From an archaeon GW2011_AR15 (GTDB lineage Archaea > Nanobdellota > Nanobdellia > Woesearchaeales > GW2011-AR15): 64,000 nucleotides of DNA. The DNA lies in contig CP010425.1 in the NCBI GenBank assembly GCA_000830295.1, forward strand, positions 192,001 through 256,000, read 5' to 3'. The notes under the pieces are model-generated. The model saw only the letters and a program-made list of their open reading frames with translations, ran no database searches and was not told the DNA's origin. Positions 47,205-60,207 of this stretch are shown here, piece after piece; within the stretch, counting starts at the first letter, position 1; every line of letters begins with the position of its first letter. The position numbers and the translations under genes are program-made.

Positions 47205-48050
47205 TTAGTGGATTGATGCCCTCTCGTTTGATGTGCACACATAACCGGGAGCATCTGCTGCTTTTGTTTCTACCCTCATAGGCCTGCTTCCTGCACTATA
47301 CTCGTCTTTATCCAGCACCCTGACCAGCAAAGAGCACAGGCCTTTTTCAGGGTCAGCACCAAGAGTTACCTGTCCTGTCGGCAGATATGTCACCATGTTT
47401 ATGGCCTGATTAACTTCATCCGGCACAATGACTCTCGGATTTGGCGTGGACCTGAGAAACACAGGCCATAGAGTAGCAGAGCGGCCGTAAAGGGTTATCC
47501 CTGTAATGTTCTCGATAAGCTGCTCTTCCCATTCCGGCTCGGAAAGGATATAATCATACAATTCTTTCCTTACTTCCCCTGTACCTCCCTCTTCATTGCA
47601 GGCAATATAGGAATACTCCTGGCTGGCAGGGCTATAACTCCCTGAAGTCACCAGACCTACCCGGATTGCCCTCCTCAACAGCTGCCGGCACGCATCTATA
47701 TCCTCTTTGGATTCTTCTCCCCATTTGTATGAATTGGCTGCCATACGGCCAACCACAATAGGGTTTGGTATCCTGATATTGCTGGAACCGTTTCTTGCCA
47801 TACTTAGCCAGTCATCGTAAGACTGAATCTCCCTGACAAGAATGTCGTTTTCCTGAATAAGTTCTTTTTTCTCCAGTTTTTCCAGAGTTTTGTCATCAAT
47901 ATCCCCTCTTAATAGAAGAGAAGGATAGAGAACAACATCTCTTGGTCCTGACATTATAAATCTGTAGAACTCCGGGAAAAGAAAGGGCTGATTCTCTCCT
48001 CCATCCAATTCCGAAGCTATTTCTCTTGTTGTATTGATTTGTTTTACCAT
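47205..48050 (-). CDS. Hypothetical protein
   Basis: 281-aa ORF, AGGAGATGA SD. Confidence 0.7.
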   Translation of the reverse strand: MVKQINTTREIASELDGGENQPFLFPEFYRFIMSGPRDVVLYPSLLLRGDIDDKTLEKLEKKELIQENDILVREIQSYDDWLSMARNGSSNIRIPNPIVVGRMAANSYKWGEESKEDIDACRQLLRRAIRVGLVTSGSYSPASQEYSYIACNEEGGTGEVRKELYDYILSEPEWEEQLIENITGITLYGRSATLWPVFLRSTPNPRVIVPDEVNQAINMVTYLPTGQVTLGADPEKGLCSLLVRVLDKDEYSAGSRPMRVETKAADAPGYVCTSNERASIH

Positions 48051-48069
48051 TTTTCATCATCTCCTTGTT

Positions 48070-48480
48070 TTATTTTTTGTATTCCGGAGAAGGGCATTCT
48101 CCTATCTGCTCTGCATTCATTATAATATAGCCTAGCAGTGTTGTACTTATCCTATACTCACAGCCTTCCTGAAGGGGTTTATCATACAGGAAAAAGCCGC
48201 CCACAGGTTTCCCCTGAAGATCAATCTCCTGCCCTACCACTCTAACTATCCCGTCAGGGCCGAGGACACTATAATCAGCATATCGGAACTCGGAATACCA
48301 GCCCCTATCCATTAGGTATGCCCTTGTCGTATCTTCCCTGCCTATTACCCTCCCTTCAATATTTCTCAGGGGGAGAGTAACAAGGCATGCTGCTGCAATA
48401 GCAAGTCCTGCTGCTGATATGAGTAATTTGTCCTCTATGCTTATTTTATTTAGTTTAGCTAATGTTTTCATTCTCATCAT
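48070..48480 (-). CDS. Hypothetical membrane-anchored protein
   Basis: N-terminal hydrophobic helix; GGAGATGA SD. Confidence 0.65.
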   Translation of the reverse strand: MMRMKTLAKLNKISIEDKLLISAAGLAIAAACLVTLPLRNIEGRVIGREDTTRAYLMDRGWYSEFRYADYSVLGPDGIVRVVGQEIDLQGKPVGGFFLYDKPLQEGCEYRISTTLLGYIIMNAEQIGECPSPEYKK

Positions 48481-48574
48481 CTCCGCCGCTTAATGCCCGG
48501 CCGGCGCTTTGGTTATCTAATTAACAAAACCAGGACTGGAGATGATGATGCACTCGAGAACGAAAATAGTTGAG

Positions 48575-48646
48575 GGCGACAGGCGAGAATCGAACTCGCG
48601 TCTTAGGATCCACAGTCCCAAATTCTGCCACTAAACTACCGTCGCC
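48575..48646 (-). tRNA. tRNA-His(GTG), G-1 encoded
   Basis: G-1 + GCGACGG/CTGTCGC acceptor, C discriminator, TGGGA-CTGTGGA-TCCTA anticodon arm, GTTCGATTC T-loop. Confidence 0.95.
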
Positions 48647-48647
48647 A

Positions 48648-49331
48648 TTAAACATCAGAATCACCCTTAACAGAATATTCTACAGTTGCCTCGGCTAAAA
48701 TCTGAAGTGTGTCATACAATTTTAAATCCGAATCTTTCTGGCTTATCAAAAGAGGAAGCTCTGTGCACCCCAATATAACTGCATCGCATCCCTTTCCTCT
48801 AAATTGAGAAATTATTTTCAAAATAGATTTTTTATCAGACTCAAGTTTTTTCCCTGCAAGGATATTCAGGATAATCTTAGTTATTTTTTCCTGCTGTTTC
48901 GCGGTCGGGAGTTCAGAAGTTTTTCCGAGATTGCTTAGTTTTTTCTGGTATACCCCGGAATTAATAGTCTGCCTTGTTCCAAGTATCCCGGTTTTTCCTG
49001 AACCAATTTCCTCCAGTGTTTCATCCACTATGCTCAGAAAAGGCAGTCTGAAATCAAGAGAGGAAAAAAGTGTGCCTGCTGAATTGCATGGGCTCACGAT
49101 AAATTCAGCGCCAACAGCTGTAAGCTTATCAACTCCTTTCTGGAGTGAATTAATTACTTTAGGGTCTGTCGTTCTTACAATCTCAGGCAGAGGAAGGTTA
49201 TAGATGAATATCTCAGGGTAATCAAAATCATTTGCACAGCCATATTCTCTCTGGAATATGCTGATAATTCTTTTATAGAATTCCGCAGTTGCCTCTGGCC
49301 CCATGCCGCCAAGAATGCCAATTGCTCTGAT
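48648..49331 (-). CDS. Aspartate/glutamate racemase family protein (start uncertain: ATC at 49331 or TTG at 49361)
   Basis: IGILGGMGPEAT, PCNS and LGCTELP catalytic Cys pair. Confidence 0.9.
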   Translation of the reverse strand: MRAIGILGGMGPEATAEFYKRIISIFQREYGCANDFDYPEIFIYNLPLPEIVRTTDPKVINSLQKGVDKLTAVGAEFIVSPCNSAGTLFSSLDFRLPFLSIVDETLEEIGSGKTGILGTRQTINSGVYQKKLSNLGKTSELPTAKQQEKITKIILNILAGKKLESDKKSILKIISQFRGKGCDAVILGCTELPLLISQKDSDLKLYDTLQILAEATVEYSVKGDSDV

Positions 49332-49405
49332 GACGTAAATCTCCAGACTGGTTACTGGCAATGCCTCTGGAACTGGAATCCGGCTTAGTTAAAATAGACG
49401 TAGAA

Positions 49406-49450
49406 CTACTGACAATGAATACAATCTTCAGGCTGGTTACTGATTCTCAT
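49406..49450 (-). other. Candidate leaderless uORF MRISNQPEDCIHCQ upstream of racemase
   Basis: ATG ~24 nt downstream of TTTTATATA box (49474-49482). Confidence 0.4.
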
Positions 49451-49552
49451 AGCAGATGGGAATGTTTAACTGGTATATAAAACTTTTGTGATTTGTAACT
49501 TACAAGTGAATATTAGAAAAGTTTAAATAAAATAGTATTATTTCTTTCTCCC

Positions 49553-49603
49553 ATGCACAAGCCAGCAGCACAAAGCAAGTATTCTTATTACTATTATTGC
49601 TAG
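49553..49603 (+). CDS. Candidate Tyr-rich leader peptide MHKPAAQSKYSYYYYC
   Basis: ATG ~24 nt after TTTAAATA (49522-49529); TAT TCT TAT TAC TAT TAT run; directly upstream of phhA. Confidence 0.75.
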   Translation: MHKPAAQSKYSYYYYC

Positions 49604-49683
49604 CTGAACCTTTCCCTTTCTGAATAAAGCATGGGAACTAGGTTCCGGTGTGCATTTCTAAAAAACTATTCGGAGGTATTAAA
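49604..49683 (+). promoter_or_regulatory. Candidate translational attenuator (hairpin vs anti-SD pairing)
   Basis: GAACCT-TTCCC / GGGAA-(CT)-AGGTTC hairpin; TTTCTGAATA complementary (3 GU) to TATTCGGAGG containing the SD. Confidence 0.6.
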
Positions 49684-50451
49684 ATGAACTTTACAAATGA
49701 ACAAAACAAAACATGGAGAACGCTTTTTGCCAGATTGAGGCCTGTTGTAGAGGAGCACGCCTGCTCGGATTACTTAGCTGGATTCAGAAATCTGAAAATG
49801 GATCCGGAAAGAATCCCTTCGGTGGAGGAACTAAATGAACAGATTGCGCCGAGAACTGGCTGGAAAATCGAGAGGACAAAAGTGAGATACAGTGATGCTG
49901 TGCCTTGGTACTTGAAATTTTCAGAGAGGATATTCATGATAACAGATTATATGAGAACTTGGGAAGAGCTTGATTTTACTCCAGAGCCTGACATGTTCCA
50001 CGACATATTCGGCCACCTGCCTTTCATGACGCTGAAGCAATACACAGCCATACAGGACATGTTCGCCCCTGCTTTCATAAGGGCGACTCTTGAGGAGCAG
50101 GAAAACATAAAGAGGCTGGCATGGTTCAGCACTGAGTTCGGGCTGATAAAGGAAAACGGGGAGGTAAAAATATTCGGGGCGGGAATAATGTCCTCAAAAG
50201 GCGAGATAGAAAATGTAGTATCCGGAAAAGTCCCCATTCTCCCTTTCACAATAGAGAACGTGCTGAAAAGGAACAAGGCAATCTACAGCTTCAACAAGGA
50301 GCTTTTTATCTTCAATTCAGTTGAAGAGCTGAAGCAGGAACTCGGGAAATACTTTGACCCTATTGCAGCAAGAGAAAAGATAATAATCCAGAGAAAAGAA
50401 AAGATTGTGGACAGGGAGCTGAAAGACCTGAAGAGACCTATATTTCCCTGA
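49684..50451 (+). CDS. phhA: Phenylalanine 4-hydroxylase (pterin-dependent aromatic amino acid hydroxylase)
   Basis: TPEPDMFHDIFGHLP and WFSTEFGL (2-His-1-Glu iron triad), GAGIMSS; GGAGGT SD. Confidence 0.92.
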   Translation: MNFTNEQNKTWRTLFARLRPVVEEHACSDYLAGFRNLKMDPERIPSVEELNEQIAPRTGWKIERTKVRYSDAVPWYLKFSERIFMITDYMRTWEELDFTPEPDMFHDIFGHLPFMTLKQYTAIQDMFAPAFIRATLEEQENIKRLAWFSTEFGLIKENGEVKIFGAGIMSSKGEIENVVSGKVPILPFTIENVLKRNKAIYSFNKELFIFNSVEELKQELGKYFDPIAAREKIIIQRKEKIVDRELKDLKRPIFP

Positions 50452-51778
50452 GGTTTTCCATAACCTCGCTGAGAGTAGGATGGATATGGATCATCTTCTG
50501 CAGTGTTGAGACTGTCGCGCCCGCATTCATGAGTGCAACAAATTCATGAATGATGTCGTCTGCATTAGGCCCAGCTATCTCTGCGCCTATTATTTTTTTG
50601 TCTTTTTTGCTGAAAAGAATTTTCACCTGGCCGTTTTGCTCCTCTATTATCCTTGCCCTTCCCACATTGCTGAAATCAGCTTTCAAAATACCATAGCTGA
50701 TCTTTTTTTCTTTTGCAGATTTTTCATTCAGCCCGATCCCTGCAACAGGCAGGCTGGTGAATATCGCCCATGGCACTAATGAGAAATCCATTGCTGTTTT
50801 TTTTGATTCAAATATATTACTCAGGACAATCTTTGTTTCCCTCTTTGCTGCGTGGGCAAACATCGCCTTTCCTGTAACATCGCCTATTGCATAGATATTT
50901 TTGTTTGTTGTCTGCAGGAACTCATTTACCTTTATGCCTCTCCCCTCCAGCTCTATTCCTGCTACAGCGAGGTTCAGGAATTCGGTGTTGGGAACTCTGC
51001 CTGTTGCGACAAGCACTGCTTCTGCCTTGACTGACCTGCCCTTGTCAAATACAACTCTTTTCAGCTTTCCCTCTTTCCTGACTTCATGTATTGTGAATCC
51101 AGTATGCAGGTCAACATTTCTCTTCCTGTAATATTCTTCCACTATGCTTATTGTGTCAGCATCCAGCATATTGAGAATATCAGGCAGCCTTTCTATCACT
51201 GTTACCTTGCTTCCCAAACCTGCAAAAAAACTTGTGAATTCCATTGAGATGTAGCCGCCTCCGATCATCACTATCGACTTCGGAAGTTTTTTCAGATTCA
51301 GGATTGAGACATTATCCAGATAATCTATTTTGTCAAGGCCCGCTATTGGAGGCACAATGTTTCTTGAGCCTGCTGCAATAATAATCTTTTCTGCCTGTAT
51401 CTTCTCCTTTCCCGCCATAATAGTATTATTATCTATGAATTTTGCTTTTGCCTTAAAAAGAACTATATTCTTATTTTTTTTCTGGGCTTTCTCTATATGT
51501 TCCCTTCCCTCTTTCACTATGGCATTGACTCGAGCCATGAGCTTCTTAAAATTCAGCCGGGAAGTTGCTGTTATGCCGTACCTTGCTAAATCCCTAGACT
51601 GGAAATAAAGATGGGATGCATACAGCATTGCCTTTGTAGGAATGCAGCCGTTGTTAAGGCATGTCCCACCAAGATTACCGGGCTCTATAAGCGCAACTTT
51701 TACCTTTTTAGAAGCATGCGCTGCAGCCCGCCATCCGGAAGTCCCGCCGCCTATTATTGCAAGCTTAAATGCTTTCAT
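50438..51778 (-). CDS. Dihydrolipoyl dehydrogenase-like pyridine nucleotide-disulfide oxidoreductase
   Basis: IIGGG, GGTCLNNGCIPTK, IGGGYI, YAIGD, HPTLSE. Confidence 0.9.
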   Translation of the reverse strand: MKAFKLAIIGGGTSGWRAAAHASKKVKVALIEPGNLGGTCLNNGCIPTKAMLYASHLYFQSRDLARYGITATSRLNFKKLMARVNAIVKEGREHIEKAQKKNKNIVLFKAKAKFIDNNTIMAGKEKIQAEKIIIAAGSRNIVPPIAGLDKIDYLDNVSILNLKKLPKSIVMIGGGYISMEFTSFFAGLGSKVTVIERLPDILNMLDADTISIVEEYYRKRNVDLHTGFTIHEVRKEGKLKRVVFDKGRSVKAEAVLVATGRVPNTEFLNLAVAGIELEGRGIKVNEFLQTTNKNIYAIGDVTGKAMFAHAAKRETKIVLSNIFESKKTAMDFSLVPWAIFTSLPVAGIGLNEKSAKEKKISYGILKADFSNVGRARIIEEQNGQVKILFSKKDKKIIGAEIAGPNADDIIHEFVALMNAGATVSTLQKMIHIHPTLSEVMENLREI

Positions 51779-51855: not shown

Positions 51856-51933
51856 ATGAAATCTGTTCCAGAGAAGGCTATGGGAAAAGGCAAAGGCAAG
51901 GATAAGGACGACGATGACTGTCCTTTCTGCTGA
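51856..51933 (+). CDS. Candidate 25-aa micro-protein ending in CPFC
   Basis: AGGAGG SD; MKSVPEKAMGKGKGKDKDDDDCPFC*; stop overlaps GAGGTGA SD of VKOR. Confidence 0.6.
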   Translation: MKSVPEKAMGKGKGKDKDDDDCPFC

Positions 51934-51941
51934 GGTGAAGA

Positions 51942-52460
51942 ATGTTTAAGGATGCCAACAAGATCCTGAATGTACTTTTAGTTCTGGGTATGCTGGTATC
52001 CCTGTTTCTTTTGTATGAGCATTTTTCTCCTAATGCAAGCCAGTTCTGCAATTTTGGTGCTGGTCTGGACTGCGGCATTGTAAACAAAAGCCCATATGCC
52101 AACATTGACGGCCTGTCATATCTTTTCACTATAGATTTCGGCTGGTCTCTCCCGCTTATAAATCTCTCAGGCATGAACTGGTTTTTTGACCTGCTGACTG
52201 CAAACGCATTCCTTGGATTCTTAACACTTGTATTCCTTTTCTTCCTGGCAAAAGCCCACAAGGAGAAAAAGGGCTTCCTGTTCATAGAAAAGAATAGCAC
52301 ATTAAACTGGATGAAAGGCATCACTGCTTTTGGTGTTGCCTACGGGTTCTACCTGTTCCTCATCCAGCATTTCATACTGAAGACCTATTGCGTATACTGC
52401 CTTGCTCTTGATGTTATATTGGTTGCCTCTCTTGTTGTTGTGTGGAGGATGAAGAAATGA
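51942..52460 (+). CDS. Vitamin K epoxide reductase (VKOR) family protein
   Basis: C...C.IV.KSPYA loop cysteines, C-terminal YCVYC, about 4 TM. Confidence 0.9.
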   Translation: MFKDANKILNVLLVLGMLVSLFLLYEHFSPNASQFCNFGAGLDCGIVNKSPYANIDGLSYLFTIDFGWSLPLINLSGMNWFFDLLTANAFLGFLTLVFLFFLAKAHKEKKGFLFIEKNSTLNWMKGITAFGVAYGFYLFLIQHFILKTYCVYCLALDVILVASLVVVWRMKK

Positions 52461-60052: not shown

Positions 60053-60207
60053 TGACAGTATGGATGAACTATATACTTATAATTGTTATGGAGAAATGTC
60101 CAGTGAATATTGCTTCGCTCCTGTCCCGTAAAATGGCAGCCGCATCATTTTTTTATTGTTGGGTGGACAGAGGTATTTAAAATTAGTTATATGCTGTCAT
60201 ACAGGTC

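Follow-up and report, generated by a model that had tools for sequence, protein, structure and literature searches.

A candidate tyrosine-sensing leader peptide upstream of the phenylalanine hydroxylase gene in the archaeon GW2011_AR15

Leader-peptide attenuation is a textbook coupling of transcription and translation in bacteria; in its classical forms the position of the ribosome selects between alternative RNA structures, and we know of no leader-peptide attenuation described in archaea. A short reading frame rich in Tyr codons, placed between a racemase gene and the hydroxylase gene phhA of the archaeon GW2011_AR15, raises the question of whether such a device could sense tyrosine supply in an archaeal host. 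The window analysed here is a stretch of 64,000 nucleotides of contig CP010425.1 (positions 192,001 to 256,000 of the forward strand), and all coordinates are given relative to its first nucleotide. A preliminary description of this locus had proposed a leaderless, Tyr-sensing attenuator of phhA, and each element that it listed (TATA box, reading frame, hairpin, anti-Shine-Dalgarno (anti-SD) segment, 7-nt complement, SD region and phhA) is present at the coordinates reported below.

The phhA gene (49684-50451, plus strand) encodes a 255-amino-acid aromatic amino-acid (phenylalanine) hydroxylase with a match to Pfam PF00351 (Biopterin_H, 1.2e-40) and homologues of up to 53-68% identity. The top NCBIfam model, phenylalanine 4-monooxygenase, scored 203.8 bits, under its 247-bit cut-off. 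PhhA converts phenylalanine to tyrosine. The host genome is archaeal, 1.16 Mb in size, assembled into one contig and 96.8% complete; within it neither EPSP synthase nor prephenate dehydratase was found, no prephenate dehydrogenase scored above cut-off, and a pterin-4a-carbinolamine dehydratase is encoded. Judged by these missing biosynthesis markers, the organism is unable to make aromatic amino acids, with tyrosine coming either from uptake or from phenylalanine through PhhA. As in ribosome-mediated attenuators, the codon cluster is cognate to what lies downstream, with Tyr codons standing ahead of a phenylalanine hydroxylase homologue in a genome where other tyrosine routes are missing.

The gene is a rarity among its relatives, having been found in GW2011_AR15 alone of 61 related genomes. 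A contig search for phhA returned two loci, one of which (L003) was left unused as it lacked the 5' end of the gene, and contigs from four public DNA runs were identical wherever they covered 49300-50500, with no strain variation, such that the phhA leader is known as a single sequence. The sequencing runs identified for the locus comprised 20 from DNA and none from RNA. Seven other hydroxylase homologues from the same order, found among 400 other genomes (29-35% identity), had no Tyr-rich upstream reading frame when their upstream translations were read. At three other archaeal loci, a racemase gene lies directly 5' of the hydroxylase gene.

Promoter and reading frame ahead of phhA

The putative promoter of the leader spans 49514-49533 on the plus strand, where an A-rich, BRE-like stretch precedes an 8-base TATA box (49522-49529). 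Scored with a PWM trained on 192 promoter sites of the same genome, it reached 16.7, a score that puts it at the 85th percentile among real sites and that none of 50,000 random genome positions attained. It was also the sole strong TATA/BRE match on the plus strand of 49362-49700, the runner-up in the 323-nt intergenic region scoring 1.9, and no second promoter-like site was detected ahead of phhA (best PWM score 0.4). A second promoter placed directly 5' of ileS, valS or phhA was likewise considered for the GW2011_AR15 genome and rejected, with no site scoring above 4.2. Counted from its first base, the TATA box lies 31 nt upstream of the leader ATG at 49553, and the modal distances in this genome are 30, 31 and 32 nt. 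This promoter geometry and TATA-to-ATG spacing suggest that the phhA mRNA starts at the leader AUG and carries no 5' UTR, in agreement with the earlier prediction of a start at 49553 rather than downstream of it.

The predicted leaderless reading frame (49553-49603, plus strand) consists of 16 codons and a stop (49601-49603), and belongs to a set of 43 predicted leaderless short reading frames in the genome. Its proposed sensor comprises five Tyr codons within 49580-49597 (49580-49582 and 49586-49597), which occupy codons 10, 12, 13, 14 and 15, or five of six positions, in a run that ends one codon before the stop; a gap of 80 nt separates the stop from phhA. Among 13,802 small ATG-initiated reading frames genome-wide, this was the sole case with at least five Tyr in six codons, though by our own rough estimate about one such frame per genome is what base composition would yield. 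The Tyr run is thus near chance and the fold of the whole leader, described below, is unexceptional, so the significance of the locus rests on the position of the reading frame, the promoter geometry and comparative data. Searches of 48000-51000 against Rfam, at E-values up to 10, gave nothing significant except a tRNA-His.

Tyrosine runs and cognate-run leaders at other loci

The preliminary description had anticipated that homologous phhA loci would carry Tyr-rich upstream reading frames, and this was borne out in bacteria. Of 81 loci, the 72 with at least 250 nt upstream were retained, and in 21 of these the 250 nt preceding the bacterial phhA gene contained an open frame with at least four Tyr in six codons, compared with none in five controls (opposite strand, 0/72; downstream, 0/58 and 0/58; further upstream, 0/62 and 0/62). 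The bacterial leaders, which derive from metagenomes (e.g. L004, L007, L023, L030, L052 and L081), precede hydroxylases of the same subfamily as the archaeal PhhA (53-64% identity), and their Tyr-rich frames lie 72-149 nt upstream of phhA, the archaeal gene likewise having such a frame upstream. A hairpin followed by a T-run, at -10 kcal/mol or stronger, was present at 21 of the 22 bacterial loci with a Tyr run (from the 77 of 81 loci with at least 150 nt upstream). These hairpins are GC-rich and the bacterial reading frames mostly longer, whereas the archaeal hairpin lacks a T-run. A tree of the hydroxylases was built from 80 of the 81 loci (protein of at least 200 aa); in the clade of the archaeal PhhA, one bacterial locus shows a sigma-70-like promoter followed by a leader of 16 codons. 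When the archaeal leader was aligned in MAFFT with the two nearest loci of low GC content, no convincing similarity emerged among the three sequences.

Equilibrium models of these bacterial terminators, which cover 8 of 18 loci, gave mixed results. With a ribosome placed on the last Tyr codon, the modelled terminator probability fell from 0.87 to 0.00 in L007, from 0.97 to 0.29 in L034, from 0.94 to 0.50 in L030 and from 0.98 to 0.79 in L020; it did not drop in L004, L023 or L044, and in L049 it rose from 0.53 to 0.87. In Rfam searches of 12 bacterial loci, tRNAs alone exceeded gathering scores. The tRNA beside three of the bacterial leaders is a tRNA-Val and is not relevant. Overall, the sequences point to a seemingly undescribed Tyr-leader terminator attenuator ahead of phhA at many bacterial metagenome loci, which would imply that PhhA supplies tyrosine there rather than serving a catabolic role.

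Leaders of comparable design were found upstream of aminoacyl-tRNA synthetase genes in relatives of GW2011_AR15. Short reading frames ending in a cognate run preceded 15 of 28 ileS, 10 of 26 valS and 16 of 25 thrS loci, and in cross-controls non-cognate runs occurred at 0-2 loci per cell. These tables exclude, for ileS, L124 (5' end off the contig) and L122 (short upstream region); for valS, L149, L158, L159 and L160 (C-terminal piece only); and for thrS, L189 and L191 (partial matches). A TATA-like box stood 26-36 nt upstream of the short-frame ATG in 38 of 40 leaders. The leaders are 11-31 codons long, the run lies 0-2 codons from the stop, and the structured spacer measures 35-152 nt. Conservation is confined to the terminal run, the remaining peptide being variable, and in all three gene families the run is cognate to the synthetase. 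The phhA leader resembles them in the 30-31 nt that separate a strong TATA box from the ATG and in its terminal cognate run, and shares with many thrS leaders a Cys codon between run and stop. It differs in being unique to one genome and in preceding an acquired metabolic gene, whereas the ileS, valS and thrS leaders show conservation between genomes and stand ahead of synthetase genes. Outside this family, no Thr leader was found at any of 20 thrS loci in an evenly drawn sample, from which 7 of 27 non-own loci had been dropped (six with a match starting at residue 70 or later, plus L212).

The spacers of these relatives also differ from that of phhA, since they often hold T-runs and lack a modelled SD switch. 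In the first 60 nt past the leader stop, T-runs of five or more were present in 9 of 10 valS, 11 of 16 thrS and 2 of 14 ileS leaders; in 10 of 16 thrS leaders the stop codon lies in the loop of a small hairpin, and the ileS leaders have a helix, one arm of which is made up of the Ile codons themselves, with compensatory changes in 6 of its 9 pairs. The valS hairpin rests on single-sequence folds, RNAalifold having returned 0 pairs from an alignment that was too gappy. Across 28 leaders, accessibility of the ribosome-binding site (RBS) did not change consistently between states (means 0.57, 0.54, 0.56 and 0.56), and SD masking as a general output for all leaders was rejected.

Within the GW2011_AR15 genome itself, leaders of the same predicted design, with a strong TATA box, a leaderless ATG, 13-21 codons and a terminal run, accompany further genes. 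An Ile-run leader precedes ileS (TIGR00392, 812 bits), a Val-run leader precedes valS (NF009687, 1034 bits), and a degenerate Thr leader with two Thr only precedes thrS. A Phe-run leader, specific to this genome like the phhA leader, stands ahead of an operon whose last gene encodes the pterin dehydratase, the partner enzyme of PhhA; the products of ORF192 and ORF154, which lie behind this leader, matched no Pfam or NCBIfam family. In all five leaders (phhA, ileS, valS, thrS and Phe) the TATA box lies at -30 or -31 and scores 16.1-17.3. In models of the Phe leader the 3' arm of the hairpin overlaps a perfect anti-SD, and the SD is unpaired with a probability of 0.22 versus 0.00, in the same direction as for phhA and matched by 4 of 200 shuffles. 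Models of the valS leader, the thrS leader and one further leader of the genome showed no SD switch. No cognate-run upstream frame was found at ten synthetase-like genes of the genome. The genes for its two class Ib synthetases, TyrRS and TrpRS, between which the assignment does not distinguish, have no cognate leader.

Predicted alternative RNA structures and rival explanations

Under the proposed mechanism, the 16-codon leader peptide would report tyrosine supply to the downstream phhA gene. Transcription would begin about 30 nt after the TATA box, and the mRNA would open with the leader AUG. Under a shortage of charged tRNA-Tyr, the leading ribosome would stall at the Tyr codons (49580-49597), a hairpin would form during transcription, and the phhA SD would be left comparatively open, allowing PhhA to be made. 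When tyrosine is plentiful, the ribosome would instead reach the stop codon and cover the 5' arm of the hairpin; the segment 49617-49626 would then pair with the SD region (49667-49676), and translation of phhA would be held down. We infer the transcription start, the translation of the leader, the stalling and the output step alike.

The RNA between leader and gene holds the parts that this scheme calls for. The hairpin (49606-49645, plus strand) starts 3 nt past the leader stop, with arms at 49606-49616 and 49633-49645, a 2-nt bulge and a predicted stability of -14.6 kcal/mol. Its loop contains the pyrimidine-rich candidate anti-SD segment (49617-49626), which complements 49667-49676 through 7 Watson-Crick and 3 G-U pairs (best duplex -9.4 kcal/mol). 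The SD region of phhA (49667-49676) includes a pentamer (49672-49676) separated by 7 nt from the ATG at 49684; the 3' end of the 16S rRNA has a matching anti-SD, and SD-like motifs genome-wide peak at -15 to -8. A further 7-nt segment (49649-49655) is a perfect complement of the leader 5' end (49553-49559) and is paired in the minimum-free-energy (MFE) structure, although by our estimate a 7-bp inverted repeat within about 130 nt is not rare. The leader as a whole folds unexceptionally (z-score -0.89; 37 of 200 shuffles fold equally well).

Folding models constrained by a ribosome, with an assumed footprint of 12 nt past the A site, gave partial agreement with the scheme. The hairpin is part of the MFE structure of the free leader and of the leader with a ribosome on the first Tyr codons, and is gone with a ribosome at the stop; once its 5' arm is masked, the SD finds its best partner in the anti-SD segment, at a pair probability of about 0.8. 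In these models the hairpin and the anti-SD:SD helix cross and are hence mutually exclusive. The footprint-constrained effect forecast in the preliminary description was reproduced for early stalls, the SD being unpaired with a probability of 0.45 for a stall on the first Tyr versus 0.12-0.13 at the stop, but not for stalls on the last two Tyr codons, which were already 'off' at 0.15-0.27 (0.15 on the last Tyr). The free RNA, at 0.44, resembles the 'on' state, and the 'on' direction of the models fits early-Tyr stalls only. Since the free RNA is 'on' and last-Tyr stalls are 'off', which way the switch operates depends on the footprint chosen and on kinetic trapping. The stall-versus-stop difference in SD pairing was matched at a frequency of 0.007 among 400 spacer shuffles and, separately, by 1 of 200, whilst sequestration in the stop state was equally strong in 25% of spacer shuffles.

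Taken together, promoter geometry, bacterial homologues and sister leaders are three independent lines of sequence evidence under which the core of the original claim, a leaderless Tyr attenuator of phhA, is likely; the support for its hairpin and anti-SD output step comes from folding models, and that step is not general among the sister leaders. Several other accounts need to be weighed against it. An unlikely one retains the same Tyr sensor and makes the output transcriptional or a matter of RNA stability: the hairpin past the stop would promote termination, pausing or processing, and a stall on the last Tyr codons would cover or melt its 5' arm and permit read-through into phhA. Oligo-T tracts terminate archaeal RNA polymerases, the bacterial phhA Tyr leaders end almost uniformly in hairpin and T-run terminators, and among the synthetase leaders the T-runs of valS and thrS, the stop codon in the small-hairpin loop of thrS, the covarying Ile-codon helix of ileS and the absence of an RBS switch in the sister leaders would all suit such an output. 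The phhA leader itself fits it poorly, as no T-run longer than 3 follows its stop and no terminator-like site was found on the plus strand of 49300-49760; T5 runs are also scarce in ileS leaders, and the SD switch is statistically unusual in precisely the phhA and Phe leaders.

It is improbable, in our assessment, that the Tyr frame is a relic or coincidence, brought in with a horizontally acquired gene or arisen in AT-rich DNA, with phhA expressed constitutively from the upstream promoter. A single five-in-six Tyr frame per genome is near chance, very many windows were scanned (a look-elsewhere effect), the T-run of the bacterial counterparts has been lost, and the thrS leader of this genome, reduced to two Thr, illustrates that such leaders can decay. 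Against this stand the exact leaderless spacing between the ATG and a top-scoring promoter of archaeal type, an arrangement that a relic from bacteria would lack, and an intact frame whose run ends one codon from the stop, like the native ileS, valS and thrS leaders. The second genome-specific leader, with its Phe run before the operon encoding the partner enzyme of PhhA, and the spacer shuffle tests (1/200 and 4/200) also weigh against coincidence. A different role for the frame appears very improbable, whether the Tyr-rich peptide is itself the product, as a small protein or a substrate of the hydroxylase or racemase, or the frame loads ribosomes that re-initiate at phhA. Its placement between racemase and hydroxylase, and the racemase-hydroxylase order at the three other archaeal loci, would accord with this, and a role in re-initiation has reportedly been proposed for bacterial leader frames (PMC4833913). 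The sister leaders, however, keep the terminal run alone and match it to the synthetase, which fits codon sensing and not a peptide product, and a Pfam scan of the neighbours revealed no peptide-modifying genes. PhhA-type enzymes, moreover, act on free amino acids. On balance, we lean towards a Tyr leader on which stalling ribosomes register the supply of tyrosine and thereby adjust phhA, with anti-SD:SD masking as its modelled output.

Relation to known attenuators and biological meaning

As in the classical attenuators of bacteria (trp, his and pheA/pheL), codons for the amino acid that the downstream gene supplies are clustered in the phhA leader, and pheL-type leaders are of about equal length. 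The classical systems are bacterial and use a hairpin and T-run terminator as output, whereas the phhA leader is archaeal, has no terminator and has SD masking as its modelled output. To our knowledge no Tyr or phhA leader figures among the classical examples; none was found among known attenuators in the literature searched, and no Rfam family matched.

Leaderless short reading frames with comparable features have been reported in bacteria. The polycysteine frames of mycobacteria, which sense Cys, share with the phhA leader leaderless initiation (predicted here), a run of one codon and one signal used at several loci (Canestrari et al., bioRxiv 10.1101/834739). As described there, the stalled ribosome blocks a structure that would otherwise sequester the site, whereas in the phhA model the SD is half open in the free RNA and masked with a ribosome at the stop (bioRxiv 10.1101/834739). 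In Deinococcus deserti, genes for tRNA synthetases and for amino-acid functions are preceded by predicted leaderless leader peptides rich in cognate residues (PMC4007540). That organism is bacterial, its start sites were mapped by dRNA-seq and terminators were proposed, whilst the start of the phhA leader is deduced from TATA geometry alone (PMC4007540). That upstream reading frames regulate archaeal genes is stated, in a general way, in one tool paper. The literature searched, which comprised articles without their supplementary files, contained no archaeal precedent for leader-peptide attenuation.

Within a wider frame, we consider it fairly probable that the locus is a member of the first amino-acid-sensing leader-peptide system in Archaea. 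In such a system, Ile, Val and Thr leaders would control their cognate synthetases in one family of small-genome archaea, and one genome would have extended the device to two horizontally acquired aromatic modules, phhA and the pterin-dehydratase operon, with outputs that vary by leader, from SD masking here to oligo-T sites elsewhere. The locus is probably an archaeal instance of a control device described so far in bacteria only.

If true, this would mean that amino-acid sensing is within reach of archaeal ribosomes that initiate at a 5'-terminal AUG, and that ribosome-mediated attenuation extends beyond bacteria and works with archaeal transcription and translation machinery. It would also illustrate how a gene acquired from bacteria is brought under host control. 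Such leaders would open a route to studying how genes are regulated in uncultivated archaea that have small genomes and rely on scavenged amino acids.

A predicted leaderless transcript at phhA

The phenylalanine hydroxylase gene phhA of archaeon GW2011_AR15 (ATG 49684, end 50451, + strand; Pfam Biopterin_H, 1.2e-40) is preceded by a 16-codon ORF (ATG 49553, stop 49601-49603, +) in which codons 10, 12, 13, 14 and 15 encode Tyr. The best NCBIfam model for the protein was phenylalanine 4-monooxygenase (203.8 bits, below the model's 247-bit cut-off), and two His and one Glu, presumably the iron ligands, were invariant across 15 aligned homologues. A sequence check recovered every element named in the preliminary description, all on the + strand: an 8-base TATA box (49522-49529), the Tyr leader, a hairpin (arms 49606-49616 and 49633-49645, 2-nt bulge, -14.6 kcal/mol), a loop segment (49617-49626) that is a candidate anti-SD complementary to 49667-49676 through seven Watson-Crick and three G-U pairs (best duplex -9.4 kcal/mol), a 7-nt perfect complement of the ORF's first 7 nt (49649-49655), paired in the MFE structure, and the Shine-Dalgarno (SD) pentamer of phhA (49672-49676), 7 nt ahead of its ATG.

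The mere presence of a Tyr-rich ORF is not significant, because base composition alone would by our own estimate yield about one ORF with at least five Tyr in six codons per few genomes; place and context decide. Among 13,802 ATG ORFs of 8-60 codons in six frames of the entire 1,157,790-base genome, the Tyr leader alone reached this density, with six ORFs having four Tyr in six. The fold of the whole leader was likewise unexceptional (z -0.89; 37 of 200 shuffles equally stable).

The genome is a single contig (96.8% complete) whose rRNA genes best matched archaeal models within their clans. TATA-like 8-mers were concentrated 26-35 nt 5' of long-ORF start codons (177 matches among 1,078 ORFs), whilst SD-like motifs, matched by an anti-SD at the 16S 3' end, peaked at -15 to -8 genome-wide; most first genes therefore look leaderless, with a minority SD-led. 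In a weight matrix built from 192 of the genome's own promoter sites, the modal distances from TATA to start codon were 30 nt (71 sites), 31 nt (29) and 32 nt (26). Within the 323-nt intergenic region upstream of phhA, just two positions were of promoter grade, 49522 (+, 16.7) and 49481 (-, 17.2), the next best scoring 1.9; none of 50,000 random genome positions reached 16.7, and closer to phhA the top score was 0.4, with no promoter-like site. As the sole promoter-grade TATA box on the + strand lies 31 nt before the Tyr leader ATG, the phhA mRNA is predicted to start with the AUG of the short ORF and to carry a 131-nt leader. The transcription start, leader translation and ribosome stalling are all inferences.

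Downstream of the divergent promoter (TATA first base 49481), again at 31 nt, an ATG (49450) opens a 14-codon mini-ORF without an amino-acid run (49406-49489 region, -). A mini-ORF is therefore predicted at the start of both transcripts of this intergenic region. The divergent mini-ORF ends (49406) 44 nt ahead of the TTG start (49361) of an Asp/Glu racemase gene, directly 3' of which lies a tRNA-His (GTG anticodon; 48574-48645, -). Two further short ORFs were observed in the window: a 20-codon predicted leaderless ORF without a run (60086-60148, -; TATA score 14.5), 33 nt before a 234-aa ORF, and a 25-codon ORF with a four-Asp run (5 of 6 residues; 51856-51933, +), ending 8 nt upstream of another ORF (51942-52460).

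Leaders with cognate codons in the genome and its relatives

Scanning the genome with the promoter matrix gave 695 sites scoring at least 10, of which 230 had an ATG 28-33 nt downstream opening a long ORF, 43 had one opening a shorter ORF (under 60 codons) and 422 had none there. Four of the 43 predicted leaderless short ORFs resemble the Tyr leader in carrying codons of one amino acid: 13 codons with four Ile at the end, 84 nt before ileS (TIGR00392, 812 bits); 14 codons with three Val near the end, 94 nt before valS (NF009687, 1034 bits); 21 codons with two Thr near the end, 64 nt before thrS (TIGR00418, 681 bits); and 14 codons with four Phe, 122 nt before an SD-led operon (G000:C1:165204-166806, on the genome's own contig; loci L086, L094, L103). 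The three synthetase leader regions lie outside the window (G000:C1:936785-940048, 672608-675143 and 1076382-1078458; loci L095, L096, L098, L104, L134, L165). The Phe-led operon comprises two genes without a known family and 4a-hydroxytetrahydrobiopterin (pterin) dehydratase, the partner enzyme of PhhA; its first gene, like phhA, was found in this genome only, here among 31 examined. TATA scores of the five leaders were 16.1-17.3 at -30 or -31, with no second strong promoter at any of them by matrix score. Ten further synthetase-like genes of the genome had no such leader. An 8-codon predicted leaderless ORF with two Asp and two Asn (G000:C1:288358-288384, -; L099) was also seen; a gene for archaeal-type PEP carboxylase (PF14010, 6e-178) begins 63 nt after it, an arrangement that could be due to chance.

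In related genomes, terminal runs (three or more of the residue in question among five, within the last seven residues of the upstream ORF) followed the downstream gene: 15 of 28 ileS loci had an Ile run and none a Val or Thr run; valS (26 loci) had 10 Val, 2 Ile and no Thr runs; and thrS (25 loci) had 16 Thr, 1 Ile and no Val runs, although these counts, coming from related genomes, are not independent. This three-way specificity is hard to explain other than by codon sensing. Run-positive loci fell nearly all within the organism's own family, and none of 20 thrS loci sampled evenly across other families had such a leader. A TATA-like box lay 26-36 nt ahead of the short-ORF ATG in 38 of 40 leaders. 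The Ile codons of ileS leaders form one helix arm, with compensatory change in 6 of 9 pairs, whilst in 10 of 16 thrS leaders (L167-L184) the last codons pair with bases 3' of the stop, leaving the stop codon itself in the loop of the resulting small hairpin; this would explain the Cys codon that ends most thrS leaders, as it does the phhA leader. A short motif common to the leaders, with T runs following it, was found no more than 30 nt past the stop in 8 of 10 valS (L135-L157) and 10 of 16 thrS leaders.

Candidate output steps

The preliminary description proposed a switch between the hairpin and pairing of the loop segment with the SD, chosen by ribosome position. A ribosome stalled on Tyr codons would keep the hairpin and leave the phhA SD comparatively open; one reaching the stop codon would remove the 5' arm and let the loop segment pair with the SD region, masking it. 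In our folding model, with the ribosome covering 12 nt past its A site, this held for stalls on the first Tyr codons (hairpin intact, P(SD unpaired) 0.41-0.45) and for the stop codon (5' arm lost, 0.12), but the off state was reached even with stalls at the last two Tyr codons. Of 400 spacer shuffles, a fraction of 0.007 matched the stall-versus-stop difference, as did 1 of 200 in another shuffle set. Against the switch, the ribosome-free leader RNA modelled in a state resembling on, and SD masking at the stop was equally strong in 25% of shuffles. The Phe leader, whose architecture is clearer in that the 3' hairpin arm overlaps a perfect anti-SD, changed in the same direction (0.22 versus 0.00; 4 of 200 shuffles). 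Hairpin and anti-SD:SD pairings cross, so that a co-transcriptional choice between them could outlast the ribosome's departure.

The valS, thrS and ileS leaders showed no consistent change in RBS accessibility between modelled states, and a T5 run lay within 60 nt past the leader stop in 9 of 10 valS, 11 of 16 thrS and 2 of 14 ileS leaders but not in the phhA leader, so that the output step may differ from leader to leader. For phhA, itself a single sequence, we rate SD masking ahead of termination.

Bacterial counterparts, novelty and physiology

Tyr-rich upstream ORFs at homologous loci, a check set by the preliminary description, were indeed found. From 81 loci encoding hydroxylases of 53-64% identity, open frames on the gene strand within 250 nt upstream contained at least four Tyr in six codons at 21 of 72 loci (at least three at 30 of 72), compared with none at the four-Tyr threshold in controls (opposite strand 0/72; downstream 0/58 and 0/58; further upstream 0/62 and 0/62). 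Of the 77 loci whose upstream region reached 150 nt or more, such a four-Tyr run was present at 22, and 21 of these also had a hairpin (-10 kcal/mol or stronger) with a T-run after it; a further 14 had hairpin and T-run with a weaker Tyr run, and 41 had neither. These bacterial metagenome loci (L004, L007, L020, L023, L028, L030, L034, L035, L037, L039, L044, L046, L049, L052, L081, L083 and others) resemble classical attenuators in sequence, and in one group the Tyr run gives way at once to a small GC hairpin, whilst a segment rich in purines is complementary to the loop of the terminator. Equilibrium models of antitermination gave mixed results. No Rfam family other than tRNAs matched in 12 bacterial loci, and a literature search found no phhA leader peptide; a Tyr-leader terminator attenuator before bacterial phhA is predicted and seemingly undescribed. 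In a protein tree, the archaeal PhhA clustered with four low-GC loci (support 100/88), a placement made unsure by its long branch; one of the four has a 16-codon Tyr leader with a sigma-70-like promoter before it and a terminator after it. Alignment with the two nearest low-GC loci revealed no convincing DNA similarity between archaeal and bacterial leaders.

The phhA device would work like bacterial leader-peptide attenuators. The closest known systems are the leaderless poly-Cys ORFs of mycobacteria (Canestrari et al., bioRxiv 10.1101/834739) and the leader peptides, also leaderless, predicted for Deinococcus deserti (PMC4007540), from which it differs in being archaeal, Tyr-sensing, in control of phhA and without a terminator. 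We found no archaeal leader-peptide attenuator in the literature searched, chiefly main texts outside the subscription journals; an earlier report may exist.

The presence of phhA in 1 of 61 related genomes, together with closest homologues of at most 68% identity, several named as Anaerolineales, points to horizontal acquisition. Distant, N-terminally extended homologues of the hydroxylase (29-35% identity) in other archaea of the same order (L087, L088, L089) have a co-directional Asp/Glu racemase gene directly upstream; the racemase is the divergent neighbour in the window, and the gene pairing is thus recurrent. The genome has no prephenate dehydrogenase above cut-off (18.5 versus 26.5 bits), and neither EPSP synthase nor prephenate dehydratase was found in it; by gene content, Tyr can therefore only come from uptake or from Phe via PhhA, whose cofactor recycler, pterin-4a-carbinolamine dehydratase, is present. 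Induction of phhA upon Tyr shortage would thus make sense for this organism.
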